Source: Bdellovibrionota bacterium (GTDB lineage: Bacteria > Bdellovibrionota_C > UBA2361). From it: 34,988 nt of DNA. The stretch covers positions 1-34,988 of the forward strand of contig JBILDU010000024.1 of the NCBI GenBank assembly GCA_044352465.1, in the 5' to 3' direction. Both the position numbers and the translations under genes were made by a program. Positions 5,393 through 24,669 of the stretch are shown one piece after another. Below the pieces are notes generated by a model that searched no databases, was not told where the DNA came from, and was given only the letters and a program-made list of their open reading frames with translations. The first letter of the stretch is position 1, and each line of letters begins with the position of its first letter.

Positions 5393-8300
5393 CTAAGGGC
5401 GGGACAGTGGAGGCCGAGGCACGTCTCTGCGCTCGGCGGCGATAAGTTCGAGGACCTCTTCCGTGAGGGCATGCACCTGACTCGGCTGATCGATCTCCAC
5501 GACATTGAGCTCGATGGTGAATGTTAAGTTTTTGGAAAACTTATACCGTGCCGGGTTGCGATTGACGAGCGCGAGCATTTTCGTTGCATCGATCGGTGCT
5601 CGCGGAGAGAACACCAGCCGCAGCTTACCGTGAGCGAATTCGGCGGTCACGATTCCGTAGGTACGAAGCAACGACCGAAACGCCATGAGTTCGATCAGAT
5701 TTTGCGTCTCGCGTCCCATCGGCCCAAAGCGATCCTCAATCTCGTCACCGAGGTCGAGCGCCTCTTGGCGTGAAAGAACGGCGGCGAGGCGTTGGTAGAG
5801 AACGAGCCGCTCGGAGACATCCGGTACATAGGCATCGGGGATAAACGCCGGCATGCCGAGTTTGACCTCGGGGTCGATGACTTCTTCGATCGCGAGCTCT
5901 TCCCCTTTGAGGTTGAGCACCGCCTCTTTAAGGATCTTGCTATACAGGTCGAATCCAACTGAGAGAACGGTCCCACTCTGTTCCTTCCCGAGAAGGTTTC
6001 CCGCCCCTCTAATCTCGAGATCGCGAATGGCGAGATTAAATCCTATGCCGAGATCGTCGAGCGATTGGAGCACTTTGAGCCGCTTTTGCGCGTCGGCGCC
6101 GAGACTCCGCGCTCCGGGGACAAGAAAATAAGCGTAAGCTTGGCGGGTGCTTCGTCCCACTCGACCACGGAGTTGATAGAGCTGGGCTAATCCGAACATA
6201 TCGGCCCGGTCGATGACGATAGTGTTCACATTCGGCAGGTCGAGCCCCGATTCGATAATAGTCGTGGTGACGAGGACGTCGAACTCACGTTGCATAAAGC
6301 GATGCATAATTTTTTCAAGCTTACCCTCCTCCATCTGACCGTGGGCGAACTCGAATCGCGCCTCAGGGATGAGCTCAGCCAGTCGGGCGGTGACGACAGG
6401 GAGGCTATCGATGCGATTATGAACAAAAAAACTCTGCCCGCCTCTTTGTAATTCCCGCACGATAGCGTCCCGAATAATCGAGTCGTTGTGAGTCGCGGTA
6501 TAGGTTCGCACTACTTTGCGATCGTGCGGTGGGGTGGTGATGACGCTGATGTCACGAATACCCAGGAGCGACATGTGGAGTGTGCGCGGGATCGGAGTGG
6601 CGGTGAGGCTCAAGACATCCACCTGCTTCTTCATCTGCTTGAGTCGCTCCTTCTGTTTGACACCAAAGCGGTGTTCCTCATCGATGATGACGAGCCCGAG
6701 GTCTTTAAAGACGACGTCCCGTTGGAGGAGCCGGTGAGTTCCCACAATAATATCGATCTCGCCCCATGCTAATTGGTCGAGAGTCGCGCGATTTTCGGCG
6801 GGAGAGTAAAAACGGCTCACCGCGCCAACGCGAGCATCGTACCCCATGAGGCGCTCCGCAAATGCGCGGCGATGCTGCTCGACTAAGATCGTGGTGGGAA
6901 CGAGCACCGCCACCTGCCGGGCGTGTTGCACCGCTTTAAAGCCAGCCCGGAGCGCTACCTCTGTTTTGCCGAATCCCACGTCTCCGCAGACGAGTCGATC
7001 CATCGGGCGCTCACTCGCCATATCTCGAACCGTATCTTGAATCGCCGCTTCTTGGTCGGGGGTCTCTTCAAAAGCAAAGCCGTCGGCAAACCGTTCATCC
7101 TCAGCACCGAACGGTTCGTAGCGCCATCCTTTGGCAACACTGCGTTGGGCATAGAGTTTGATCAAATCACCAGCGAGAGCGACGACCGATTCGCGGACCT
7201 TCTGGCGTGTCTTGACCCAACGGGTTGATCCAAGTTTGTCGAGGACCGGGCGTTGCCCCTCCGCGGCGACAAACTTTTGGATCTTCCCGATATTTTGAAC
7301 GGGGAGATAGAGTTTGCTGTCAGCATACTCGATATGGAGAAAGTCACTTTCGGCGCCCTCTATATTAAGGTGTTTCAGCCCATGGTAGACCCCGATTCCG
7401 TAATCGGTATGGACGATGAAGTCACCTTCAGCGAGTTGGGCGAGTGTCCCCATGATCTTTTTGATGCTGAGGGTTCGCGACTTCGCGCGCCGGTGCGACC
7501 GCTCGCTGAATATCTCGCTCTCGGCGATGAAGACGAGTTGCTCACGCGGGAGCTGAAAGCCCGCTGAGAGGGTGCCCTCAATGATCGAAACTCGGGTGCG
7601 GTGGGGGGAGTCGATCCATTCGAGCCCGCCGAGCTTTGTCGGGACGGCTTCGATCCCGATATCGAGAAGAAGCTTTTGCAGCCGTTCGGCCCGGTGTGGT
7701 GAGCCCACGACAAACGCAATCGAAAATCCGTGGTCGATCCACGTCACCAATTTCTCGCGGAGGGGGAGTAACGCTTTGCCCGAGCCGGCTTTTGATTTGA
7801 GGCGAGTGGTGAGTTCGGTTAAAGAGAAGGATTGAATCGAAGTGGGGGGGCGACTGTCGATGCCCTCGCCGCTATCATCAAGAAGCTCAAGCTGATCGAT
7901 GATCGCGCTCGTGCGGGGAGAGATGTGGGCACGCACTTCAGCTGGCGTGAGGTAAAGGGTCTCGATAGTCGGCACGAGGTAGTGCTCGGCGGCCATTCTC
8001 TTGCCCCGCTCCTCGACCAGTTCGTAGTATTCGTCGAGGGCCTGGCGAATTCCGAGCTCGTCGCAAACGATGACAGAGCTTTCCGTCGGAAGGTAGTCAA
8101 AGAAGGTTTCATAACCGGGGCTGCCGATCGCTTCGATAAGCTCGAGTGCGGGATAGTCAGTCCCCGTGCGGAGAGCGCTCATCGCCCGAGCGATCTCCCG
8201 TGGTGGTGTTTCGAGTTTTTTCCCCCGAGTTTTAAGCCGATCGGTTGCGGAATGCAGGGCGGCACCCGTCAAACGGGGCGGTAGCTCCCGCACCGGAAGG

Positions 8301-8899
8301 ACGGTAATACGATCGAGCGAGTCGGTGGAGCGCTGTGATTCCGGCTCGAAAAGCCGCAGAGCTTGGATTTCCGCCCCGTGAAACTCAATCCGGACGGGGA
8401 GGGGGGATGTCGCGGGGAAGAAGTCGATGACTTGCCCGCGTATGGCGAGATCACCGAGATTCTCGACAAGGGAGACCTCTTGATATCCGGCTTGTCGAAA
8501 GCGTGGCCCGAGTTCTGCCACCGTGCCGAGTTGGCCGAGCGTCAGCTCAAAACGGAGCTGTTGGAGCGCTGCGCGGGGCACGATTCGCTGGATCAGAGCC
8601 TCGGCCGGTGCCACAATTATCTTTGGTGTGGGCATCTCAAGCGAGAGAAGGGTTTCGATGCGCTGGGCTGAAACCTCGGTTTGGGGGGATACCGTCTCAA
8701 AGGGGAGGGTATCCCACGCTGCGAGTTGCTTTATCTCGGCACCGCCAAGAAAGAATTTGAGGTCGTGAACGAGATCCTCTCCAGCTGCTCGATCCTTACA
8801 GAGGATCACGACGCAGCGCCGATCGCGCACGAAGCGGGCAAGGAGCCACGCCCGCGCAGCGCCGAATAATCCTACATAGCGTTCGATCTCGTTTCTCAT
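5393..8899 (-). CDS. mfd: Transcription-repair coupling factor (start ATG 8899 or GTG 8935)
   Basis: UvrB-homology N-terminus, RID (HTDYGIG), [48 protein letters not shown] and C-terminal TRCF domain. Confidence 0.97.
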
Positions 8900-9001
8900 T
8901 ATACTCGCTTCACGATCTCTCCGAATGAGCCCCACGGCGACAAGTGGAGGAGAGGTTCGGTCTTCTAGTTAACTATAGCGAAGAGTTCTGGCTGCGTCAG
9001 T

Positions 9002-14020: not shown

Positions 14021-14260
14021 CAGTCAAAACGTAGGGGCTTCGCCGGGCAGAGCTTCAAGAGCAATGTTACGGAATTCTAACACAAATAGCTTTGACTCAG
14101 CGGTGAGGGCGCTCTAGAACTTCACCAACGGAGCGCCTCGATCGCTATGTGGTAGTTGCGTTCGAGTGATGATCATGAGCGCAGCGGTGATAAGAAATGT
14201 CATCTCCGGGCGAGTGAACTTGTCTCCGGTCAATGTCATGACACGATAAGGAATAAATTT

Positions 14261-15478
14261 ATGCGGCGACTATCGGTGATTGCGGCGTTAGCCTGCCTTT
14301 TCCCCGCAGTGGGGCAAGCCACGACGTTGGAGGACCTCTTGGTCGAAAAGGGGGTGCTTTCGCGCGGGGAGGCCACTGCGGCCCACGCAGCGGGTGCTTC
14401 GAAGATCTACTGGAAGAAGGGTACCCGAATCGAGTTTCCTGATAGTGGCTTTACGGTGGGTATCACCTCGTTTCTCCAGACACGCTACACTTTTACCGAT
14501 AACGACGCCGATTCCGGCAAGGTGAATACCTCGAGTTTCTCGGTCAAACGCGCACGACTCATCGTCTCTGGCACGGCGCTCAACGAGGAGTTCGCCTATA
14601 AGTTAGAGGGAGATTTCGTCGGGGGTAAAGGCTCCGATGGCGCTGCCTCAGCCAACATGAAGGATGGCTATCTTGAGTGGAACGCCTGTGATTGGGCAGG
14701 GGTGCGGCTCGGCCAATTTAAGACGAATCTCGGGCGGCAACACCTCAACTCGGATACCGCGCTGCAGTTCGCGGATCGGTCGGTGGTGAGTGATTACTTC
14801 ACCCTCGATCGTCAAAACGGGGCCATGGCGACCTCGAAGCTTATGGGCGACGAGCTCGTGATGACCGCCGGTATTTTTAACGGAGAGAGCGACGGTGAGT
14901 CTGGCCCGAATAAGTCGGGAGTTGATACGAACCACACTGGGATCGTGTCACTCCGGTGGAATCCTCTCGCCAAGATAAATGCCTATGAAGAGGGGGATGT
15001 CGATTGGAGCGAAGAGATGGCGCTCTCCTTCGGAGCTTCCTATGGGTTCGCCGACTCCAAGAATGAGATCGGTGGCGCACTTGAGGGGGTAACTCAAAAC
15101 ATTGTGGCTGTTGATGCGAACATGAAATACCTCGGTTGGAGCGTCCATGCCGAGCTCTTTAATAATAACGCTGAAGCAGACGATGTGGATGTAGAGTCGG
15201 ATCCCTCGGGTTTCTACGCCCAGGTCGGCTACTTCTTTGACCCGAAGACCATGGAGGTTGCGGCCCGATATAGCTACCTCGACTGTGATAACGGAGCTGC
15301 GGGTGGTGACTGCTCGGGCAACGATAGCCTCGATGAGGTTACGGTCGGCTTAAACTACTATTGGTGGAAGCACCATCTGAAGGCGCAATTGAACTACGTG
15401 CGTCTGGCTGAGGATGCGGTCGCTGGGGAGGACCTGACGACCAATCGTTGGCTCGTCCAGCTATCGGCGACGTTTTAA
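14261..15478 (+). CDS. Outer-membrane porin, OprO/OprP (phosphate-selective)-like
   Basis: AAGGAA SD and ATG 14261 (preferred over TTG 14156); signal peptide; FSVKRARL, RLGQFK and LQFADRS motifs; VGLNYY; terminal Phe (QLSATF). Confidence 0.8.
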   Translation: MRRLSVIAALACLFPAVGQATTLEDLLVEKGVLSRGEATAAHAAGASKIYWKKGTRIEFPDSGFTVGITSFLQTRYTFTDNDADSGKVNTSSFSVKRARLIVSGTALNEEFAYKLEGDFVGGKGSDGAASANMKDGYLEWNACDWAGVRLGQFKTNLGRQHLNSDTALQFADRSVVSDYFTLDRQNGAMATSKLMGDELVMTAGIFNGESDGESGPNKSGVDTNHTGIVSLRWNPLAKINAYEEGDVDWSEEMALSFGASYGFADSKNEIGGALEGVTQNIVAVDANMKYLGWSVHAELFNNNAEADDVDVESDPSGFYAQVGYFFDPKTMEVAARYSYLDCDNGAAGGDCSGNDSLDEVTVGLNYYWWKHHLKAQLNYVRLAEDAVAGEDLTTNRWLVQLSATF

Positions 15479-15682
15479 GGGCACCTCCCCGAATAGACCC
15501 GTCGCGAGAAGGTGGAGCTTGGCAAAAATGCAAGGAAGGCAGCGGAGCGAGAGCAGAGGAGGCCTCTTTGGCCGGCGAGCGCTCGCGAAAAGGTTAACGT
15601 CGCAGATTCGCCGAGTTTCGCTTTCGTCGTAGGGGATATTTTGTCTGGGTCGCTACGGTAATTTCGATGCATGTAGTTTGAG

Positions 15683-15711
15683 AAGGGGGGGCATCTGCCC
15701 CCCCTTTTTTT
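15683..15711 (+). terminator. Intrinsic (Rho-independent) terminator
   Basis: AAGGGGGGGCA-tc-TGCCCCCCCTT followed by a T-run. Confidence 0.85.
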
Positions 15712-15908: not shown

Positions 15909-16934
15909 ATGGGGACGGTAAAAGAATTTCCGAATAAGGGGGCGCGCAGAGGGCTGGAGCGTGCTCTTCAGGCGCTGGGTGGTCTCGTCACCAGTCGAAC
16001 ACTTCCCCATGTGGTTGCGAGTGGCGCGCTCCTCTTGCTACTGGGGGTGAGCCTCCTCTTGTGGATCGAGATGAAGAAGCGATTTCCGGCGATCGAGCCG
16101 GCGAGCTATTACGGAACCATCGAGGGGATCTTTGCCTCGGTTGATGGCTCGCCGAGTCGCTTTTATATTGAGCGCCAGCCCGGCAGTGATGAGATGATCG
16201 GGGTGGTGGTGCGAGCAGGGTGGTTGCCGCAAGTCGTCTCCGTGGTGACCCGCAGCGGTCGATCCGGCGGAGATGAATGGATACTCCCCCTCACCATTAA
16301 TGGTCCTGATGGCACGTTGAGTCTCATTGGAACGCGGGCTGGTCCGGGAGAGTATGTCGGTAGAGCGGTGAACAGCGACACCGGTCGGGAGGGCTCGTGG
16401 CAGCTGGCGAAGATCGACGATATGGCTCCCGTGGCCCAGCGAGATGAGCGGGAGTTGACCCTATGGCTTTCGCTGCGCTACGAGCTCCTCGAAGTGCGTG
16501 AGCAGATAGCTGGTTTGGAGAAGCAGGTTCCCGCTCAGAAAGCAGAGATCGATAAGCTTTCCGCGTTTATCTCTGAAGGTACCCGTCTTCGTTCGAGTGC
16601 TGATGAGAAGTTTCTCAAGGTTAAAGAGCAGCTTCGCGAGGCGCAGCTCGAGCTGAAGCAGCGCCAAGAGGAGGCACGGAAACTTGAGGCACAGCTTGAT
16701 TTGGCGCAGCGCTTTACCGGGATGGGACGGTTAGTGTCTCTCGCGCGCGAGTCTCTCGAGCGCGAGGGGCGGTGGATCGACTCGATGCTGCGGGGGGATG
16801 TTGTCTCAACGCAAAGTGAGATTGAACGCGCTGTGGCTCGAGCTGAGGCGGTCGCTCGAGTAAAGCGCGAGATCCAAAAGCTTCAGCGGGGAACGACCGC
16901 GCCCCAAAGCGGTCCCGCACAGGAGGATTCATGA
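15909..16934 (+). CDS. Hypothetical bitopic membrane protein with beta-rich domain and long coiled coil
   Basis: One hydrophobic helix (VVASGALLLLLGVSLLLWI), a Gly/beta-rich middle and a heptad-rich E/K/Q/L C-terminal half. Confidence 0.8.
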   Translation: MGTVKEFPNKGARRGLERALQALGGLVTSRTLPHVVASGALLLLLGVSLLLWIEMKKRFPAIEPASYYGTIEGIFASVDGSPSRFYIERQPGSDEMIGVVVRAGWLPQVVSVVTRSGRSGGDEWILPLTINGPDGTLSLIGTRAGPGEYVGRAVNSDTGREGSWQLAKIDDMAPVAQRDERELTLWLSLRYELLEVREQIAGLEKQVPAQKAEIDKLSAFISEGTRLRSSADEKFLKVKEQLREAQLELKQRQEEARKLEAQLDLAQRFTGMGRLVSLARESLEREGRWIDSMLRGDVVSTQSEIERAVARAEAVARVKREIQKLQRGTTAPQSGPAQEDS

Positions 16935-17815
16935 GGCGCATCGGCCGTGGGTTTGTGAGCGGTATTATCTCTGTCGCTGTGTCTTTCGCGCTATCCTGTG
17001 CCGTGGCAGTGAGAGCTGAGGCCACCGAAATTTTTATCGATCAGGTCCGTCGCCTGGCCTTTCCCCCGACTGAAGCATTCTTCCTCGTCAGTTTCAGCGA
17101 CGTTCGAGTAGTCAGGGTGGCTGCAACCCTTGTGCAGCTTGGGGGAAAAAACGGGGATGATGCCCTGAACTCTGTCGTGGGTGCAGTCGCCCGAATCCAG
17201 ATTCCGGACGAGATCCCTCATCTGACCTATAGCGCGGTTTTTCTTGGTACCGGCAGTCGGCTCGAGTTCGTGGCGCCCGTCAGGGTGAATCTTCATGACG
17301 CCAGCCAAAGGGAGGTCTCGGTCGATACGATACGCGAGGAGCTTCTTCAGCATAAAGCGGTTCTCGGAAGTTGGCGGATGCAGGTACAAGCACAAGAGGA
17401 GAGCCTGAAGCGACTGCGCTCCGACGCAGAGATTCTCGGTGATTTTGGGCGAATTATCGATAAGCGAGAGGAGCTTGATCGAGCCAAAAGCGATTTAGCC
17501 AACGTCGAGCGTGATATTGAAAATCTAACTCGTTTCGTGAAGCTCGCGAAGACACGGCCCGCACCGGCGAATCAGGTGGGACGAGAGGCACAGCTCGTCA
17601 AACAGCTTTCCGAGATTACCCAAGTAAGTCATGCGGTCGAACTCACCGAGATTCGCCGCCGTTCCGCAGCTGAGGCGGACTTGCAGAGGAAGCTCGCTCT
17701 TATTGAAGCGACCCGGCAAGAGGATTTGGCGGGTCTCACGAGTGAACTTGAGCGATTAAAGCGCGCTCCACGACCCGCGCCATCAAACTCTACATCCGCG
17801 GAGAATGCTGAGTGA
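16931..17815 (+). CDS. Hypothetical exported coiled-coil protein
   Basis: Signal-peptide-like N-terminus ending AVRAEA, a beta-rich domain and a coiled-coil C-terminus; ATGA overlap with the upstream gene. Confidence 0.8.
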   Translation: MRRIGRGFVSGIISVAVSFALSCAVAVRAEATEIFIDQVRRLAFPPTEAFFLVSFSDVRVVRVAATLVQLGGKNGDDALNSVVGAVARIQIPDEIPHLTYSAVFLGTGSRLEFVAPVRVNLHDASQREVSVDTIREELLQHKAVLGSWRMQVQAQEESLKRLRSDAEILGDFGRIIDKREELDRAKSDLANVERDIENLTRFVKLAKTRPAPANQVGREAQLVKQLSEITQVSHAVELTEIRRRSAAEADLQRKLALIEATRQEDLAGLTSELERLKRAPRPAPSNSTSAENAE

Positions 17816-18096
17816 CCGAAACGCAGCCGAACCTTGAGCTCCGCGAGCTCGATTCATTTGCTGACGGCATCGTGCGGCGAGGTCTGACGGTTCCGGCTAT
17901 TTTTCTTTTGGAGTTACACAAACCTCTCACCGGTATCGGACACCTTGTTGCTGAGGCGTTTGATCCGCTGACGCGGTGTCTTCTTGGTTCCGAGCGGGCG
18001 GCGACTGTGTTAAAACTGTTGGAATCTCGAGCTCATGTAGAGTACGTCCTGACTCGCCTCGAAATGACGGCACGGAGTAATCCCCATGGGGGTTGA
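17812..18096 (+). CDS. Small hypothetical protein (GLTVPAIFLLELHKPL)
   Basis: GTGA overlap with the upstream stop; amphipathic 94 aa; overlaps the next gene. Confidence 0.75.
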   Translation: MTETQPNLELRELDSFADGIVRRGLTVPAIFLLELHKPLTGIGHLVAEAFDPLTRCLLGSERAATVLKLLESRAHVEYVLTRLEMTARSNPHGG

Positions 18097-18883
18097 ACAC
18101 GCCACGCTTGGAATTTTGGTATTGACCCTCGGCATGGTCGTGCCGGTGCTCTATTTTATTCGCCAGGCGCGCCATCGCCCCGACATGTACGTACGCCGTA
18201 TTCCCGGTGTCGATGCCATCGACGAAGCAATCGGCCGTTCGGCTGAGCTCGGACGACCGGTGGTTTTTTCGACGGGTCTCGCCGCGGTAGGTCCGGTGCT
18301 CTATGCCTGCTTAGGGGTGGTCTACTACGTCGCGCGGAAAGTTGCTCGGTATAAGACGAAGCTTCTTCTGCCGCAGAATAATCCTGAGGTCATGGCGATT
18401 ACCGAAGATGTAGTGCGCGATGCCTATCGAGCTGAGGGGCGGGGAGCCGCGTTTGACCCGGGAACGATTACGTTCCTGTCGGACGAGCAGTTCGCCTTCG
18501 CCGCTGGGTACATCGGTCTTGTGCAGCGAGAGCGGGTGGCGACGGCGTTTCTCTTCGGCTCATTCGCGGCCGAATCGCTCGTTCTTGCGGAGGCGGGACA
18601 GCAGGTTGGGGCGATGCAGGTCGCCGCGAGTGTGAGTCCGGAGCAGGTCGCCTTCTTTATCTGCGCGTGTGACTATACCCTTATCGGGGAGGAGCTCTTC
18701 GCTGCGTCAGCATACCTCACCCGTGAGGAGGTGCAGCTCGGCAGTCTCTACGGGCAAGATCGGGCCAAGCTCATGATTCTTGCCCTGATACTCCTCGGTG
18801 TCGTCATCGCGACGATTAATTCGATTTTCCCAGAGTTGGCTATTCCGAATATCGACCACTTCATTTTATACGAGGTATGGTGA
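18086..18883 (+). CDS. DUF6754-like membrane protein (TM - alpha/beta domain - TM)
   Basis: RRIPGVDAIDEAIGRSAELGRPV, GSFAAESLVLAEAG and CDYTLIGEELFAASAYL resemble DUF6754 as recalled; terminal TM helices. Confidence 0.7.
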   Translation: MGVEHATLGILVLTLGMVVPVLYFIRQARHRPDMYVRRIPGVDAIDEAIGRSAELGRPVVFSTGLAAVGPVLYACLGVVYYVARKVARYKTKLLLPQNNPEVMAITEDVVRDAYRAEGRGAAFDPGTITFLSDEQFAFAAGYIGLVQRERVATAFLFGSFAAESLVLAEAGQQVGAMQVAASVSPEQVAFFICACDYTLIGEELFAASAYLTREEVQLGSLYGQDRAKLMILALILLGVVIATINSIFPELAIPNIDHFILYEVW

Positions 18884-19947
18884 GTGGTCGTCAGCGGAGT
18901 TTCGTGGGTTCGTTTGGGCACATGTCGTATCGGCAGAAATTAATCAGGCTCTTTACGTTTCTGGGGGGGGTGTATTTTTTCCTCCAATTCGTTCTGCCCG
19001 CCACACTTTTCGGGGTTCGACTCGATGCCTATGATCGGGAGATCTCGGATGGGTTTGTGGCTATCGGAGCGATGGCCGTGGGGCTGGGTTTAATCAATTT
19101 GCTCCATGTCCATGGGGGCAAGATCGTTTTCCGGCGGGCCGGCTGGTTTAATAGCTGCGGTCTCATGCTGGGGTTGTGCGTCATGCTTGTGGTCACGGCG
19201 TTGGATTGGCGCGCCTCGGCGAGGATGACGACCGATGTGGAAAAGATTTCGCACCTCCGTGATTTCGCAGAGCGGATTGTATCCGATCAACGCGCGGCTA
19301 CCCCTGGAGTGCGCTCACTCGGGGAGCGGAGTGCGCTCCTCGCGCGGAGCTTTGTTGAGCTCGGGCCCTCACTTGATCCAGCGGGGCTCCGTCCTCCTGG
19401 TCAGAATAACGACCCCGAGAGCTTGTGGTTCCGAACGGTGCGAGAGTATACCGAGCTGCTTCGCGGCGCTCAGATAGAGATTGCGCAGCTCTCCGAGAGT
19501 GCGACAGCGGAGGGAATCCTCTCGCTTATCCCCAAGCTCAGCGCGCTCAGTGCGGTGCGACGGGATCTCCTCCTGCAGGAGTATCGGGGTTCGACGATCC
19601 AGGATACCTACTCGCTTCTCTATGACGGTCTTTTTGTGGCCCTCGGGTCGGCGATGTTTTCGCTCCTGGGATTTTACATCGCTGCCGCTGCATATCGTGC
19701 TTTTCGGGTGCGTAGTGCGGAGTCCGCGTTGATGATGACGGCAGCGCTTTTGGTTATGCTGGGACAGATTCCCTTCGGTATTTGGCTATGGGAGGGCTTT
19801 CCTGAGGTCCGGCTGTGGCTCCTTTCGGTGCCGAGCACCGCGGCTTTTCGCGCGATTAAGATCGGAGCCGCGGTTGCCGGTTTGATACTCGCTTTTCGCG
19901 TGTGGTTCTCTATTGAGTCAGAGAGTTTTTCGCGGGGGAAAAGATGA
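18877..19947 (+). CDS. Multi-pass membrane protein of unknown function with helical soluble insert
   Basis: About 3 N-terminal TMs, a soluble helical segment and about 3-4 C-terminal TMs (SAMFSLLGFYIAAAAYRAFRVRSAESALMM..LGQIP). Confidence 0.85.
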   Translation: MVSGRQRSFVGSFGHMSYRQKLIRLFTFLGGVYFFLQFVLPATLFGVRLDAYDREISDGFVAIGAMAVGLGLINLLHVHGGKIVFRRAGWFNSCGLMLGLCVMLVVTALDWRASARMTTDVEKISHLRDFAERIVSDQRAATPGVRSLGERSALLARSFVELGPSLDPAGLRPPGQNNDPESLWFRTVREYTELLRGAQIEIAQLSESATAEGILSLIPKLSALSAVRRDLLLQEYRGSTIQDTYSLLYDGLFVALGSAMFSLLGFYIAAAAYRAFRVRSAESALMMTAALLVMLGQIPFGIWLWEGFPEVRLWLLSVPSTAAFRAIKIGAAVAGLILAFRVWFSIESESFSRGKR

Positions 19948-20822
19948 GATTCGACATCTCCGCGATCGATCGCCGACTGATCTATCTTTTGGTTTTTCTG
20001 TCCCTCGCCCTCCCCTTGTCGTGGGGGTATCGGGTCACGCCGGCGCGTCTTGAGAGCGCCGAGAAGTTATATGCGGCGGTTGAGTCGATCGAGCGTCAGC
20101 CTGGCCGTATCGCGGTGGTGGCGATGGATTTCGGTCCCAACCTCATCGCCGAAAACGGTGCTCAAACCGAAGTGGTGCTGGAGCATCTTTTCCGACGCCG
20201 CATCCCGGTCGTTTTGTTTTCACTCTATAACCAGGCGGAGCCTTTTCTTACCTCGATTCCCGAGGGGGTGGCTGATCGGCTAGCCGCTGAATTTCCCGGT
20301 GAGCGGTGGACTTACGGAGTTGACTGGGTGAACGTCGGATTTCAGCCAGGCGGATATCTCTTTGTTCAAAGTCTTCCCAAGGCGGATAATTTTATGGCCG
20401 CCCTGGGTAAGGATGTGCGGGGAAATACGATTACGACCCTCCCGATAGCCCAAGGCGTGGGGGGATTTGAGAGCGTGGCGCTCCTGGGACAATTCACCGG
20501 CCTCCTGGGGATGTTCGACTTATACATCCAGTTTTTTCAAACAAAGGAGTATCGCCCGATTTTTACCCACGGTTGTACCTCGATCACGATCCCCGAGGCG
20601 TTCATTTATCTCGATTCGGGGCAGTTAACCGGTCTGCTTGAGGGAATCGCCGGAGCGGCCTGGTACTCCGAGATGCTTCAGCGTGCGCACCCTGGGCGCA
20701 AAGCCGATAGCTCGGGTGCGATTAACACCGGTCTCGGAGTCGCCCACCTTATCATCATTGTTTTCATCCTCCTGGGGAATCTTGGCATGGTGTTTCGGGG
20801 GCGGCGTGAGGAGGGACGGTGA
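19944..20822 (+). CDS. Membrane protein, TM - alpha/beta domain - TM
   Basis: IDRRLIYLLVFLSL N-terminal TM, DFGP..E, YGVDWVNVGF, SGQLTGLLEGIAGAA and a C-terminal TM; ATGA overlap. Confidence 0.85.
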   Translation: MRFDISAIDRRLIYLLVFLSLALPLSWGYRVTPARLESAEKLYAAVESIERQPGRIAVVAMDFGPNLIAENGAQTEVVLEHLFRRRIPVVLFSLYNQAEPFLTSIPEGVADRLAAEFPGERWTYGVDWVNVGFQPGGYLFVQSLPKADNFMAALGKDVRGNTITTLPIAQGVGGFESVALLGQFTGLLGMFDLYIQFFQTKEYRPIFTHGCTSITIPEAFIYLDSGQLTGLLEGIAGAAWYSEMLQRAHPGRKADSSGAINTGLGVAHLIIIVFILLGNLGMVFRGRREEGR

Positions 20823-21529
20823 TGTTGTCAGTTGATCCAGCTGTTCTCACCGTCCTTGTCGGTGGTTTCGCTACCCTGGCGATTTTTAGCTTTCTCGTGA
20901 AAGAGAATCCGTTTTATCGTTTCTTTGAGCATGTATACATCGGTATCGCGGCGGGGTTCGGGGTCATTTTGACCTTCAAAAATTTTTTGTGGCCGCGCAT
21001 CCTCTCTCCCATGGTCGGTCATTCCATCGTCGTCTTCCCCGATGGGACGACGTCGGCACCTTATAACCCTGGATATCTGCTCTATCTCGTCCCGATGGCG
21101 TTTGGATTACTGTATTATTTTATCTATTCAAAGAAGCATGGATGGCTCGCCAAACTGGTCATCGGCTTTTCCCTCGGTATGAGTGGTGGAATCGCTCTGA
21201 AGGGTTTCTACAATGAGATGATGCCTCAGATCGTGGGTAGCTTTAAGCCGCTCGTTGTCGTCGGTCCGGGTGGTATCGATTGGTGGGGAAGTTTCGAGAA
21301 TATCGTCTTTATCTTCACCTTAGTTGCGGTGATGTATTATTTCTTCTTTTCTTTTCGGGGTGAAGGTCGTCTCGCGCGCGGGCTCTCCGCTTCGGGGCGA
21401 TGGCTGATGATGGTCTGTTTTGGGGCCTTTTTCGGCTCAACTGTCATGGCGCGTATGGCGTTACTCGTTGAGCGGGTACAGTTTCTCCTTCACGACTGGT
21501 GGGGAGCGCTGCGGAGTTTGTGGATTTAG
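20819..21529 (+). CDS. Highly hydrophobic multi-pass membrane protein of unknown function
   Basis: About 6 TMs; KENPFYRFFEHVYIG and GRWLMMVCFGAFFGSTVMARM; GAGGAGG SD; overlaps the upstream stop. Confidence 0.85.
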   Translation: MMLSVDPAVLTVLVGGFATLAIFSFLVKENPFYRFFEHVYIGIAAGFGVILTFKNFLWPRILSPMVGHSIVVFPDGTTSAPYNPGYLLYLVPMAFGLLYYFIYSKKHGWLAKLVIGFSLGMSGGIALKGFYNEMMPQIVGSFKPLVVVGPGGIDWWGSFENIVFIFTLVAVMYYFFFSFRGEGRLARGLSASGRWLMMVCFGAFFGSTVMARMALLVERVQFLLHDWWGALRSLWI

Positions 21530-21532
21530 GCA

Positions 21533-23359
21533 ATGAAGACAGATCCGGCCACCCTTCGTACCGTCTTGGTTACCGATTGCGGTTCAACCACTACCAAAGC
21601 GCTGCTGTTCGAGCGGACCGAAATGGGTTGGCGCCAAACGTGTCGCGGGGAAGCTCCGACGACCGTTGAGTCACCCGTCGCCGATGTTACCGTCGGCGCC
21701 CTGAATGCTTTTACCGAGGTGCAGGAGCTCTCGGGGCGAACGATTTTATCGGGTGATGCGGGGGCACCGTTCTTGATGACGGCGGCGGAGCCGCGGGAAG
21801 GGATCGACCTCTATCTTTCGACGAGTTCAGCCGGAGGGGGACTCCAGATGCTCGTGGCGGGTGTGGTGAAAGAGATGACCACCGAATCTGCAGAGCGGGC
21901 TGCTTTAGGGGCAGGGGCGATCGTCATGGATGCGATCTCTGCCGATGATGGTCGAGAGGACTACGAGCGAATTGAACGGATACGCCATCTTCGGCCGGAC
22001 ATCGTGCTTCTCACCGGCGGAGTCGACGGTGGGTCGCGTACCCATGTCGTCGAGGTCGCCGAGATGCTCCTTGCGGCCTCTCCGCGCCCCCGTTTCGGCG
22101 AGACATTGAAGCTGCCGATTATCTATGCTGGCAATTGCGATGCGGTCGACGAGGTTCGGGAGATACTCGAGCGATTTGCCCAGCTTTCCGTCGTGGCGAA
22201 CGTGAGGCCAACTCTTGAAGCCGAGAATCTCGCTCCGGCGCGGGAGGCGATCCATGAGTTCTTTCTCACTCACGTCATGAGCCACTCCCCGGGGTACGGC
22301 ACCCTCTTGGGATGGTCCCCCGTACCGGTCATGCCGACGCCCGCAGCGGTTGGGTTGATGGTCGAGCGGTTCGCCGCGCGTCAGCGTAAAAATGTACTGT
22401 GTGTTGATATCGGCGGTGCAACGACCGACGTGTTTAGCGTCTTTCGCGACCGCTCTGGCACCCCGATATTTAATCGCACCGTGAGTGCCAACTTGGGGAT
22501 GAGCTATTCGGTAGCAAACGTGCTTATCGAGGCCGGTGTTCCCGCGATTCGGCGTTGGCTCGCTGAGCCGATTGAAGATAGTGAGCTACGTGACCGTCTT
22601 CGCAATAAGATGATTCGGCCGACCTCAATCCCTCAGACCTTGCCGGATTTGCGCCTGGAGCAGGCTGTCTGTCGCGAGGCGCTGCGTCTGTCCCTGGAGC
22701 ATCACCGCTCTCTTGCCGTGGGATTGAGCGGCATGCAGCGGCGTCGGGGTATCGCCGATATCTTTAATCAAGAGGGCTCCCGTTACGAATTGGTTAATAT
22801 GATGGCGCTCGACGTTGTGATCGGCTCCGGAGGAGTCATAAGTCATGCGCCGGATCGCATGAGCGCCGCACTGATGATGCTCGACGGATTTGAGCTCTGT
22901 GGGGTGACCCAGCTCACCGTTGATTCGATTTTCATGTTGCCCCATCTCGGTGTTTTTTCGGCGGTCCATCCCGAAGCAGCGGATGAGATTTTCCAGCACG
23001 ATTGTATCGTCAATGTCGCCCATGCGATCGCCCCCGTTTTCTCCCGGCGGGTGCGAATCCCGAGTGAGCTCGCGACCGTGACTTTTCGGGGGGCCGTGGT
23101 CGGTCGAGTCCTCAAAGATCGTGTCACGGTCATTCGTGATATCGCGGGGCAGCGGGGGGATCTGCGGATCGAGCCGTTGCACACCGCTATCGATGTCGGT
23201 GCAGGTCCGGGGCTTGCTTGGGAGCGCGAGGTCGAGGTTGGTCAATGTGGTGTTATTCTTGACGGGCGTAACCGTCCGCTCATCATGGCCGAGGATCCGG
23301 CAACGCAAGCCCGACAACAACGCGACATTGAGCAACAGCTCGGCCTTTCGGAGGGATAG
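21533..23359 (+). CDS. GlmL/MutL (glutamate-mutase-reactivase-like) actin/ASKHA-fold ATPase
   Basis: Phosphate-1 VTDCGSTTTK, SSAGGGL, LLTGGVDGG, YAGN, MPTP, phosphate-2 VDIGGATTDV, RTVSANLGMSYS and adenosine motif IGSGGV. Confidence 0.85.
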   Translation: MKTDPATLRTVLVTDCGSTTTKALLFERTEMGWRQTCRGEAPTTVESPVADVTVGALNAFTEVQELSGRTILSGDAGAPFLMTAAEPREGIDLYLSTSSAGGGLQMLVAGVVKEMTTESAERAALGAGAIVMDAISADDGREDYERIERIRHLRPDIVLLTGGVDGGSRTHVVEVAEMLLAASPRPRFGETLKLPIIYAGNCDAVDEVREILERFAQLSVVANVRPTLEAENLAPAREAIHEFFLTHVMSHSPGYGTLLGWSPVPVMPTPAAVGLMVERFAARQRKNVLCVDIGGATTDVFSVFRDRSGTPIFNRTVSANLGMSYSVANVLIEAGVPAIRRWLAEPIEDSELRDRLRNKMIRPTSIPQTLPDLRLEQAVCREALRLSLEHHRSLAVGLSGMQRRRGIADIFNQEGSRYELVNMMALDVVIGSGGVISHAPDRMSAALMMLDGFELCGVTQLTVDSIFMLPHLGVFSAVHPEAADEIFQHDCIVNVAHAIAPVFSRRVRIPSELATVTFRGAVVGRVLKDRVTVIRDIAGQRGDLRIEPLHTAIDVGAGPGLAWEREVEVGQCGVILDGRNRPLIMAEDPATQARQQRDIEQQLGLSEG

Positions 23360-23367
23360 CGGCGATT

Positions 23368-24489
23368 ATGGGACAGCTTTTTTCTCCGGGATTACAAGCA
23401 AAGCGTATTGCGACTATCCGTAAGGTCCGCGAACTCTCCATTCCAGGCACGGTGACGGTCGGCGTCGGCGATCGGGTGAGGGCTGGTGATATTGTGGCGT
23501 ATGCTGACCAGGCCGGAGAGGTCCTCATGCTTCGAGTCCCGGAGAAGCTGGGAATTGATCCGAGTGAGGTCGAGCGGGGACTGCGGGTTTCTGTCGGGCA
23601 GTCAATCGCCGCAGGGCAGGTCGTGTGTGAGCATGCGGGGCTTTTCGGACTTTTTCGATCAACTTTTATCGCGCCGGCAGATGGAGTTGTTGATTTCGTC
23701 ACGGCACGCACGGGTCACATTGGATTGCGTTTGCCCTCGAAGCGGCTTGAGTTGAACGCCTATATCGACGGCACCGTCGTCGATGTCGTTCCTGGTAAAG
23801 GAGTTACTCTCGAGACGCGCGGTGCGATTATTCAGGGCATCTTTGGAGTCGGCGGGGAGCGGGTAGGCACCTTAGCGGCTCTTCCGATTCCGCCGCATGA
23901 GCTGATCTCCGAAGAGCACGTGGCGGGTCTTGCGCCTGGAACGATCGTTATTGGTGGCACTTGTCCGAGCGGTGCGGCGTTACGTGCTGCAGCGGCGCGC
24001 GGAGTCGTTGGAATGATCGTTGGATCGATCGATGACCGCGCCCTGGCAGAGTATCTCGGCTACGATCTCGGGATCGCGCTCACCGGAGACGAAGCGGTGT
24101 CGATGAGTGTGATTGTTACCGAAGGATTTGGAACCATGCCGATGGCGGAGCGCACCCGGAGCCTTTTAACCGAGTTTGCCGGTCGACGGGCCTCGATCAA
24201 TGGAGCCACCCAGGTTCGCGCCGGAGCGCTCCGACCGGAGATCCTCGTTCCGCACGGCGAGGGGGGCGACGAGGATGTCGATGCTACATTGCGTGGCTTA
24301 GTCGTCGGTGCCCCGATTCGACTCATTCGAGTGCCGTATTTTGGTCTCCGGGGTACCGTGGTTGAGCTGCCCCGGGAAGCTGCCCGAATAGACACCGGCG
24401 CCTTCGCGCGCGTTCTTGTCGCCCAGCTCCAAGATGGGCGTCGGGTGGTGGTCCCTCGCGCCAATGTCGAGATAGCACCGGAAAACTGA
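23368..24489 (+). CDS. Hypothetical protein with barrel-sandwich-hybrid (biotinyl/lipoyl-like) motifs, alpha/beta core and C-terminal KOW-like domain
   Basis: VGVGDRVRAGDIVA and VSVGQSIAAGQVV..APADGVV hybrid motifs; QGIFGVGGE and VTEGFG; C-terminal VGAPIRLIRVPYFGLRGTV..VPRANVE. Confidence 0.8.
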   Translation: MGQLFSPGLQAKRIATIRKVRELSIPGTVTVGVGDRVRAGDIVAYADQAGEVLMLRVPEKLGIDPSEVERGLRVSVGQSIAAGQVVCEHAGLFGLFRSTFIAPADGVVDFVTARTGHIGLRLPSKRLELNAYIDGTVVDVVPGKGVTLETRGAIIQGIFGVGGERVGTLAALPIPPHELISEEHVAGLAPGTIVIGGTCPSGAALRAAAARGVVGMIVGSIDDRALAEYLGYDLGIALTGDEAVSMSVIVTEGFGTMPMAERTRSLLTEFAGRRASINGATQVRAGALRPEILVPHGEGGDEDVDATLRGLVVGAPIRLIRVPYFGLRGTVVELPREAARIDTGAFARVLVAQLQDGRRVVVPRANVEIAPEN

Positions 24490-24542: not shown

Positions 24543-24669
24543 GGTGCCTTAACGGGCCGAATTTACCAAAAATTTCGCCTGGTCGCCCCTTTTCGAGACC
24601 CTCTCGAGGGGCGCGCAGATAAAACTCAGATTGAAGAGCCCAGCAGCAAGCGGCTCCAGTGGGACCGAC

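Follow-up and report, generated by a model that had tools for sequence, protein, structure and literature searches.

A conserved seven-gene set links a long-form GlmL-like ATPase to a DUF6754 membrane cassette in many bacterial phyla

We have analyzed a stretch of 34,988 nucleotides (nt) from a lake-dwelling Bdellovibrionota bacterium (contig JBILDU010000024.1 of assembly GCA_044352465.1; the genome is 94.9% complete); this whole stretch is called the window below. It carries a tight block of nine open reading frames (ORFs) on the forward strand, o1 to o9, between positions 15909 and 24489, which the initial annotation had read as one unit built around an orphan GlmL-type ATPase. We find that a conserved module does exist, and that it consists of the seven genes o3-o9 (17812-24489), namely a membrane cassette, o4-o7, and a soluble trio formed by o3, o8 and o9; the first two genes of the block are restricted to part of the lineage. 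Judged by its scores and phylogeny, o8 is a long-form GlmL-like ATPase of the ASKHA (acetate and sugar kinase/Hsc70/actin) type, in a clade distinct from the GlmL proteins that are linked to mutases. The seven-gene system is not a reactivase of a B12-dependent mutase, and the database label "glutamate mutase L" for o8 is misleading.

The spread of the system was assessed with o4 (18086-18883; 265 amino acids (aa)), the first gene of the cassette. A search with this protein returned 4623 relatives among the 7999 candidates that were scored, many of them 65-75% identical, and in a scan of one genome per species (185,579 species genomes) at least 641 stretches matched, of which 638 were confirmed, with an estimated total of about 3400. 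The best 80 loci of the o4 scan were cut out with 10-kb flanks. Their carriers are metagenome-assembled genomes of Binatia, Bdellovibrionota, Dadabacteria, Planctomycetota, Poribacteria, WOR-3, Fermentibacteria/Aegiribacteria, Eisenbacteria, Cloacimonadota, Ignavibacteriales and Bacillota. With o4 present in 80/80 by construction, o5 (18877-19947; 356 aa) was matched in 76 of these loci, and o6 (19944-20822; 292 aa) and o7 (20819-21529; 236 aa) in 73 each; the order o4-o5-o6-o7 is constant across the set, and most of the misses are contig ends. The soluble trio is found in the same flanks less often: o3 (17812-18096; 94 aa) in 25 loci, o8 (21533-23359; 608 aa) in 25 and o9 (23368-24489; 373 aa) in 26. 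Where o8 and o9 lie near the cassette, two arrangements occur: they come directly behind o7 (the window's arrangement), or the run o3-o8-o9 stands directly before o4 (that of loci that we refer to as Fermentibacteria-type).

A trio that is missing from the flanks can be found elsewhere in the genome. In five genomes with neither o8 nor o9 within 10 kb of the cassette (two Poribacteria and one metagenome-assembled genome each of WOR-3, Planctomycetota and Bacillota), a full-length o8 was present at another place in all five (52-59% identity, E ≤ 3e-183), as was o9 (E ≤ 1e-138), and in the Poribacteria the parts of the system are spread over three separate places. Cassettes can also stand in tandem, with three in the WOR-3 chromosome L079 (5961-16741) and two in each of L069, L046 and L070; the complete WOR-3 chromosome with the tandem triplet (L079; genome G002) has a single o8 and a single o9, both located away from the cassettes.

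At the level of whole genomes the pattern is the same. Within the window's own phylum, as represented by one class, o4 was found in 117 of 124 genomes and o9 in 119; among the high-quality genomes the figures are 72/73 and 73/73, and both genes are nearly always single-copy. When 20 loci of this phylum were cut out (two of them records already in the 80-locus set), o4-o9 were contiguous in 19, and o3 was detected in 11. Among 301 Bacillota genomes, o4 occurs in 26 and o9 in 25: 24 genomes have both, two have o4 only (one of these being a fragment with a stop codon), one has o9 only and 274 have neither, the genomes being related and the counts hence not independent. Five Bacillota genomes of 2-4 Mb (G003, G259, G361, G388 and G420) hold at least eight DUF6754 matches and four to six o9 matches each (four in G388 and G420), a large expansion of paralogues, whereas the window's phylum has a single copy. 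The o8-o9 unit thus strongly co-occurs with the cassette. The locus and genome counts together bear out the initial annotation where it proposed 17812-24489 as a conserved module with homologues that travel together across genomes, and we regard it as very probable that trio and cassette are functionally linked.

The case for separating o8 from GlmL begins with its scores. The protein belongs to the Pfam family MutL (PF13941) by a wide margin, with 404 bits against a threshold of 27 (E 9e-121); the match covers model positions 1-450 and residues 11-491 and leaves a C-terminal extension of about 115 aa beyond the MutL region. It falls below all three NCBIfam cut-offs for GlmL-type proteins, TIGR01319 included, with 215 bits against 475 for NF040745 (GlmL), 205 against 600 for NF040744 (Or-4) and 176 against 204 for the third. 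Scoring the 301 Bacillota genomes with NF040745 separates three groups: true GlmL, present in 72 genomes, at 475 bits or more and about 460-490 aa; a middle tier of similar length at about 370-470 bits; and the o8 type at about 225-245 bits and about 600-650 aa. In 22 orthologues three motifs do not vary, D15-K22 (DCGSTTTK), D292-D299 (DIGGATTD) and G431-V435 (GSGGV), and we take them to be the phosphate-1, phosphate-2 and adenosine motifs of ASKHA ATPases; the earlier description of an ATPase with intact nucleotide motifs therefore stands. Mean column identity across phyla is 64%, comparable to core cell machinery, and the family forms 2490 representative clusters among 1.84 billion proteins. 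Neither the single sequence nor a profile of o8 found a relative by sequence in the PDB.

A quick IQ-TREE phylogeny with a midpoint root points the same way. It holds 54 rows, made up of 22 o8 orthologues, seven long forms from Bacillota, 14 GlmL proteins and 11 of the middle tier, and the 29 long forms split from the other 25 rows with 100% support in the SH-like approximate likelihood-ratio test (SH-aLRT), across a branch length of 2.12 + 0.79. All 14 reference GlmL genes adjoin a Met_asp_mut_E gene and 13 of them a B12-binding gene; in the loci that we read, o8 never stands beside a mutase. An excerpt of a paper on mesaconase (PMC4682846) describes MutL/GlmL as a chaperone for the reactivation of glutamate mutase. 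In the window's genome, o8 is the one PF13941 gene and no Met_asp_mut_E gene was found. Four genes with a B12-binding domain are present, all on contigs other than the window's, in keeping with the earlier remark that the window has no mutase or cobalamin gene; searches for OAM_dimer and Lys-AminoMut_A gave no match in the genome and were likewise silent in the control genomes. The question raised by the initial annotation, whether the ATPase nests among mutase-linked GlmL with a cognate mutase elsewhere in the genome, is thus answered in the negative on both counts. We had also considered that the module might replace a missing machine and dropped the idea, since the genome has MreB (three copies), FtsZ and FtsA.

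The partner of o8, o9, has no hydrophobic segment, as expected of the soluble partner that had been annotated. Its AlphaFold2 (AF2) model, built from a 22-row alignment, has a predicted local distance difference test score (pLDDT) of 86.6 and a predicted template-modeling score (pTM) of 0.66, and shows three parts. In structural comparisons with VIA-align, in which a Z near 8 is middling, residues ~49-123 resemble the barrel-sandwich hybrid of NqrA (4u9o_A, Z 8.1, root-mean-square deviation (rmsd) 1.8 Å over 64 aligned residues) and of RnfC (8ahx_C, Z 7.8, 2.7 Å, 67 residues). Residues ~152-299 form a swiveling beta/beta/alpha domain like the His domain of phosphotransferase system (PTS) Enzyme I (2wqd_A, Z 9.7, 2.8 Å, 109 residues), which also matched rifampin phosphotransferase, RraA and the small subunit of aconitase X, and residues ~310-373 are KOW/Tudor-like (NusG KOW, 1m1g_A, Z 8.1, 1.4 Å, 52 residues). 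The assignment of the first domain agrees with Pfam scans of the 22 family members, of which 14 matched RnfC_N and 13 Biotin_lipoyl; a whole-chain Foldseek search returned weak multi-domain rows only. Residue 241 of o9 was considered as a phospho-acceptor and rejected, as it is His in clades of the FCB (Fibrobacterota-Chlorobiota-Bacteroidota) type, Asp in the window's clade and Lys in L016.

Fusions show how closely o8 and o9 belong together. We found 37 long proteins that cover o9, all of them with PF13941, and 35 of these, at 974-1022 aa, are o8-o9 fusions; because such proteins exist, we consider o8-o9 a functional unit. Ten unusually long relatives of o8 (among them P0331, P0361, P0373, P0289 and P0287) include one each with an N-terminal GntR-type helix-turn-helix (HTH), an XRE-type HTH_3 domain in an HTH-o8-o9 chain, a zinc ribbon, a Peptidase_M1 domain and TSP3 repeats. 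Among the top 150 representatives of o8, the N-terminus of eight is extended by about 75-120 aa, and an HTH was found in two of the six that were scanned; in the window's own o8 and o9, Pfam detected no DNA-binding or output domain. The N-terminal extension of P0291 was tried as a fused o3 and rejected (hhalign probability 0.3%).

The third member of the trio, o3, is a small helical protein with a conserved LTVPAIxFLExxKPL motif. It stands directly upstream of o8 in two of the five genomes with a dispersed system (L084, L085), and beside o4 in the Planctomycetota loci L017 and L018, where o8 and o9 are elsewhere in the genome. It travels with either the ATPase or the cassette, and we consider o3 a candidate adaptor between them. 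Complex prediction of o3 with o4 and o8, run twice and without controls, gave an interface score (ipSAE) of 0.00 each time (mark 0.32), which weighs neither for nor against contact. Directly upstream of o3, Fermentibacteria-type loci and one Phycisphaerae locus carry a protein of about 120-180 aa without a Pfam family (L028:5638-6120, and in L027, L036, L046, L060 and L074); in those lineages it may be an eighth component.

In the cassette, o4 is the one protein with a family, DUF6754 (a domain of unknown function; PF20539), which it matches with 283 bits against a gathering threshold of 27 (E 2e-84). The AF2 model from a 75-row alignment (pLDDT 90.3, pTM 0.85) opens with a transmembrane (TM) helix (residues 8-30), continues with an alpha/beta domain of six strands (40-212) and closes with a long helix (215-247). 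The central domain is predicted to be Rossmann-like: VIA-align matched it to a sirtuin (Z 11.0), the C-domain of phosphoglycerate kinase (10.9), transhydrogenase dIII (10.0 and 9.5) and RCK/KTN domains (about 9), a generic fold match with 211 chains at Z ≥ 8. Many relatives are longer. Among 120 long DUF6754 proteins listed, 18 carry PKD domains, three Ig, two fn3 and 12 a PQQ-type beta-propeller, at their N or C ends, and PF13941 occurs in none of the 120; one example is an 863-aa protein at L019:9980-12571 with a long, PKD-containing C-terminal extension. PKD, Ig, fn3 and propeller domains normally lie outside the cytoplasm. Because such domains are fused to o4, and because basic residues follow its first TM helix, we infer that both ends of the protein would be outside and the alpha/beta domain in the cytoplasm. 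The o4 matches in G028, G020, G076 and G229 have one in-frame stop codon each, which may be a sequencing error, a pseudogene or recoding.

Hydropathy gives o5 six TM helices, three at each end, and an alignment of 34 orthologues shows that about 130 aa between TM3 and TM4 are a clade-specific insertion; in the alignment, both ends of the window protein are covered by short forms of about 210 aa, and an AAYRAFRxRS motif is conserved. In o6, hydropathy and a 32-orthologue alignment show a TM helix, an alpha/beta-type domain and a second TM helix, with a conserved DRR before the first TM helix and RR after the last; from these charges the large domain would be extracytoplasmic. The polytopic o7 has five to six TM helices, and N30, E37 and R212 are invariant in 30 orthologues. 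Thus the four membrane proteins of the initial annotation do have hydrophobic segments, although o4 and o6 consist mostly of a soluble domain between two TM helices. Profiles of o4 and o6 found no match among PDB sequences (best E-values 2.2 and 0.4), and in the ESM Atlas o4 had no usable match and o6 matched its own family only. That o4 and o6 might be paralogues was rejected (hhalign probability 2%). Scans of Pfam and NCBIfam detected neither a cofactor-binding motif nor a redox family in any subunit. They also gave no family for the window's o1, o2, o3, o5, o6, o7 and o9, and scanning orthologues of o1, o2, o3, o5, o6 and o7 singly or as extra sequences did not change this for those six. 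The earlier statement that the membrane proteins match no described system is in accord with these scans.

The whole block had been described as co-directional and closely packed, and the ORF list and junctions agree: from o1 to o7 neighboring genes overlap by 4, 4, 11, 7, 4 and 4 nt, o8 follows o7 at a distance of 3 nt, and o9 follows o8 at 8 nt. The strong upstream terminator that had been claimed is borne out: an intrinsic terminator on the forward strand at 15680-15709, a 13-pair stem (eight pairs are G-C) with a run of T behind it, marks the 5' limit of the block and closes the porin gene that precedes it; no comparable terminator was found inside the block. Downstream, a gap of 141 nt separates o9 from thrS (TIGR00418, E 1e-181), and a simple scan of this gap revealed no consensus promoter, so that the separate thrS promoter of the initial annotation was not borne out. 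The thrS ORF is listed from a TTG at 24631, and the TIGR00418 match begins at its residue 25; the true start is probably the ATG at ~24670. The sequencing runs that contain the stretch are DNA of lake and freshwater metagenomes, with no RNA run among those listed. An ORF of 1180 aa lies on the minus strand of the window at 5393-8935. None of the nine block proteins matched a PADLOC anti-phage defense model, and a defense role for the block was dropped.

The remaining two genes of the block, o1 (15909-16934; 341 aa) and o2 (16931-17815; 294 aa), had been called coiled-coil envelope proteins. Both have hydrophobic segments, as do o4-o7 and none of the trio. In o1 the segment is at residues 35-53 and is followed by a beta-rich part and then a charged helical half (63% E/K/R/Q/L/A, poor in P and G); in o2 the N-terminus is hydrophobic and the C-terminal half has a similar composition (60% E/K/R/Q/L/A, poor in P and G). 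The earlier description is plausible given this composition and weak SMC-type coiled-coil matches of o1 in the NCBIfam scan, although the coiled coil itself is deduced from composition. It is thus plausible that o1 is an N-terminally anchored envelope protein with a coiled-coil-like half, and that o2 is exported or anchored with a coiled-coil-like C-terminal half. They were found in 4/80 and 5/80 of the cross-phylum loci and in 7/20 and 3/20 of the own-phylum loci, respectively, and are clade-specific additions to the conserved seven-gene set, plausibly as periplasmic coiled-coil proteins. Directly upstream of the block, at 14156-15478, is a gene for a porin of the phosphate-selective type (Porin_O_P, E 4e-27); the same porin type precedes o1 in L012, in L094 and in L016, a record that also appears as L102; of the own-phylum loci, only 2/20 have it.

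The wider neighborhood varies between lineages. Across phyla the neighbors are housekeeping genes, those for ABC-F (10 loci), GreA (8) and Sua5 (5), with thrS in the window (and in 0/20 of the own-phylum loci). Upstream, Fermentibacteria-type loci carry genes T, H and P of the glycine-cleavage system; downstream they encode a TonB-dependent receptor together with ExbB, ExbD and TonB. Glycine-cleavage genes lie near the set in nine loci. A peptide-type binding protein (SBP_bac_5) is encoded directly after o9 in four Binatia loci, an M20 peptidase between o8 and o9 in L012 and an S9 peptidase in four loci, and permease genes of the MacB_PCD/FtsX type adjoin the cassette in three Eisenbacteria-type loci. 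No peptidoglycan, lipoprotein or lipopolysaccharide (LPS) gene was constant among the neighbors read. An outer-membrane channel gene is often next door, either a porin (in the window, L012, L016 and L094) or a TonB-dependent receptor, which we take as a hint to function. The SBP_bac_5, M20, S9 and glycine-cleavage genes, together with the fusion of Peptidase_M1 to o8, are weak hints that the cargo, if there is one, might be peptides or amino acids.

Several known systems share features with the seven-gene set. GlmL/MutL and Or-4 have the Pfam family, the ASKHA fold and the intact nucleotide motifs in common with o8, from which they differ in that o8 is about 150 aa longer, scores below their cut-offs and forms a separate clade; the reference GlmL genes are flanked by mutases, whereas the partners of o8 are o9, o3 and four membrane proteins. 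According to an excerpt of PMC7674605, the glycerol dehydratase reactivase pairs an Hsp70-like ATPase with a swiveling domain, and when it hydrolyzes ATP a Rossmann-like beta subunit is released. The reactivases of glycerol and diol dehydratases combine an ASKHA ATPase, a swiveling beta/beta/alpha domain and a Rossmann-like partner domain, for which o4 would be the counterpart; however, o8 and o9 are unrelated to them in sequence, no reactivase is among the structural matches listed, the swiveling domain here is on a separate protein (o9), the candidate target is anchored in the membrane, and no B12 enzyme appears to be involved. Importers of the energy-coupling factor (ECF) and ATP-binding cassette (ABC) types and the PTS, in which a common cytoplasmic energizing module serves several membrane modules, follow the same genomic logic, one o8-o9 set here going with one to many cassettes, adjacent or dispersed, but no subunit here belongs to those families, and the ATPase fold is that of actin and Hsp70 and not a P-loop. 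Type VII ABC systems (MacB, LolCDE, FtsEX) likewise have a cytoplasmic ATPase, small membrane subunits and large outward domains, and FtsX-type genes neighbor the cassette in a few loci; MacB_PCD/FtsX is absent from the nine proteins, however, and the ATPase fold is different. With NqrA and RnfC of Na+-NQR and Rnf, finally, only the N-terminal barrel-sandwich hybrid of o9 is in common (14/22 members match RnfC_N); its Z values are middling and no membrane subunit of Nqr or Rnf is present.

As the initial annotation had proposed, the ATPase may well power or gate the membrane complex. Our preferred reading, which we hold tentatively, is uptake: the set would be a transport system coupled to ATP whose cytoplasmic module is shared. 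In such a system, substrate would be captured by outward-facing domains, namely that of o6 and the Ig, PKD and beta-propeller domains fused to o4 in other lineages; o5 and o7 would form the path through the membrane, and the cytoplasmic Rossmann-like domain of o4, with o3, would dock o8-o9, whose ATP binding and hydrolysis would be coupled to the cassette. One or several cassettes would draw on the same o8-o9 unit, much as ECF transporters have ATPases in common and the PTS has a common Enzyme I. We prefer uptake because the copy number and dispersal of the parts resemble the logic of ECF/ABC importers and the PTS, because the outward-facing domains are of capture type, and because outer-membrane channel genes are frequent neighbors.

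A number of points weigh against an uptake system. Among the four membrane proteins, Pfam and NCBIfam detected no named transporter family (ABC, ECF, PTS, tripartite ATP-independent periplasmic (TRAP), major facilitator superfamily (MFS) and so on), only DUF6754, and the polytopic subunits are small. The orientation of o4 is deduced from fused domains and charge and that of the o6 domain from charge. The tie between the trio and the cassette is one of gene linkage, from which a physical contact of the ATPase with the membrane complex is predicted. The neighbor counts above are given without a background rate, and the hints drawn from them are each confined to one lineage. Within the window's phylum the system is single-copy, near-universal and highly conserved, with housekeeping surroundings, which fits an envelope role equally well or better; and the o8 forms with DNA-binding domains fit a sensor better than a motor.

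A related and broader view, which we consider somewhat unlikely, is that the set represents a new class of primary active membrane machine, with an ASKHA motor of the actin/Hsp70 fold and a swiveling partner in place of a P-loop, P-type or rotary ATPase. In this view DUF6754 would offer its cytoplasmic Rossmann-like domain as the dock for o8-o9, which would drive uptake or work in the periplasm via o4-o7, four subunits without known relatives, and the machine would be a core function of several uncultured phyla.

Alternatively, the set could be a mechanotransmission machine of the cell envelope, in the style of FtsEX, MacB/LolCDE or Tol-Pal, in which ATP-driven movements of o8-o9 would pass through o4-o7 to the outward domains, and work in the periplasm or at the surface would be done by the o6 domain, by the Ig, PKD and propeller domains fused to o4 and, in this clade, by o1 and o2. 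Much of what we describe is compatible with this: the near-universal, single-copy and very conserved core set in the phylum, its housekeeping neighborhoods, the protein-binding type of the ectodomains on o4, the putative periplasmic coiled-coil pair directly upstream in part of the phylum, and the MacB_PCD/FtsX genes by the cassette in the three Eisenbacteria-type loci. Against it, one would not expect a morphogenetic machine to reach eight or more cassettes per genome, as in some Bacillota, or tandem triplets, as in WOR-3; genes for peptidoglycan, lipoproteins or LPS are not constant neighbors, and with MreB, FtsA and FtsZ kept in the genome no known machine is visibly missing. On balance we consider an envelope machine of this kind unlikely.

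A sensory or regulatory device is, in our view, improbable. The cassette would sense a cue from outside or from the membrane, and o8-o9 would be a nucleotide- or ligand-dependent switch. ASKHA regulators of the ROK/Mlc type bind a membrane transporter and offer a comparison; the GntR HTH, HTH_3 and zinc ribbon found once each among the ten long relatives of o8 would suit such a switch, and Ig, PKD and propeller ectodomains are common on sensors too. However, the DNA-binding forms are a small minority (8/150 are extended, with an HTH in 2/6 scanned), no DNA-binding or output domain is seen in o8 and o9 of the window, and a sensor would hardly need as many as four conserved membrane subunits.

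We give little credence to a membrane-bound enzyme or redox complex that is kept active by a reactivase-like chaperone, with o8 and the swiveling domain of o9 acting on the Rossmann-like domain of o4. In its favor, an ASKHA ATPase and a swiveling domain are paired as in the dehydratase reactivases, sharing one chain in 37 proteins, and NAD(P)-binding folds (sirtuins, transhydrogenase dIII) are among the matches of o4; yet no reactivase chain is among the 50 structural matches listed for o9 or for o4, the fold match of o4 is generic, and the subunit scans found no cofactor-binding motif or redox family. That the database label is right after all, o8 being the GlmL/MutL helper of a B12-dependent mutase encoded elsewhere, can draw on its membership of Pfam MutL and on the four B12-binding-domain genes on other contigs, and is nonetheless extremely improbable in view of the scores far below the GlmL and Or-4 cut-offs, the absence of a Met_asp_mut_E gene from a 94.9%-complete genome, the fully supported split from 14 mutase-flanked GlmL proteins, and the constant company of o9, o3 and the cassette.

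A full-text literature search found no paper on DUF6754 or PF13941, nor on this system; on GlmL with glutamate mutase it returned the mesaconase paper only, which does not concern this system, and a looser search on GlmL, membrane and ASKHA terms gave noise. What we add here is a prediction of the fold and topology of o4, counts across a phylum and across Bacillota, a tree of o8 against verified GlmL, and a catalogue of fusions and neighbors. Taken together, the comparisons describe a seven-gene set that is widespread, large, old and highly conserved and that nearly every genome of at least one phylum carries; even so, for four of its proteins there is no family, or none beyond a DUF number. 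If the ATPase does drive the membrane part, this would be a principle of energy coupling unseen in known transporters and envelope machines; thousands of annotations would be corrected, and a core function in phyla such as Poribacteria, WOR-3, Fermentibacteria and Binatia would be opened to experiment.

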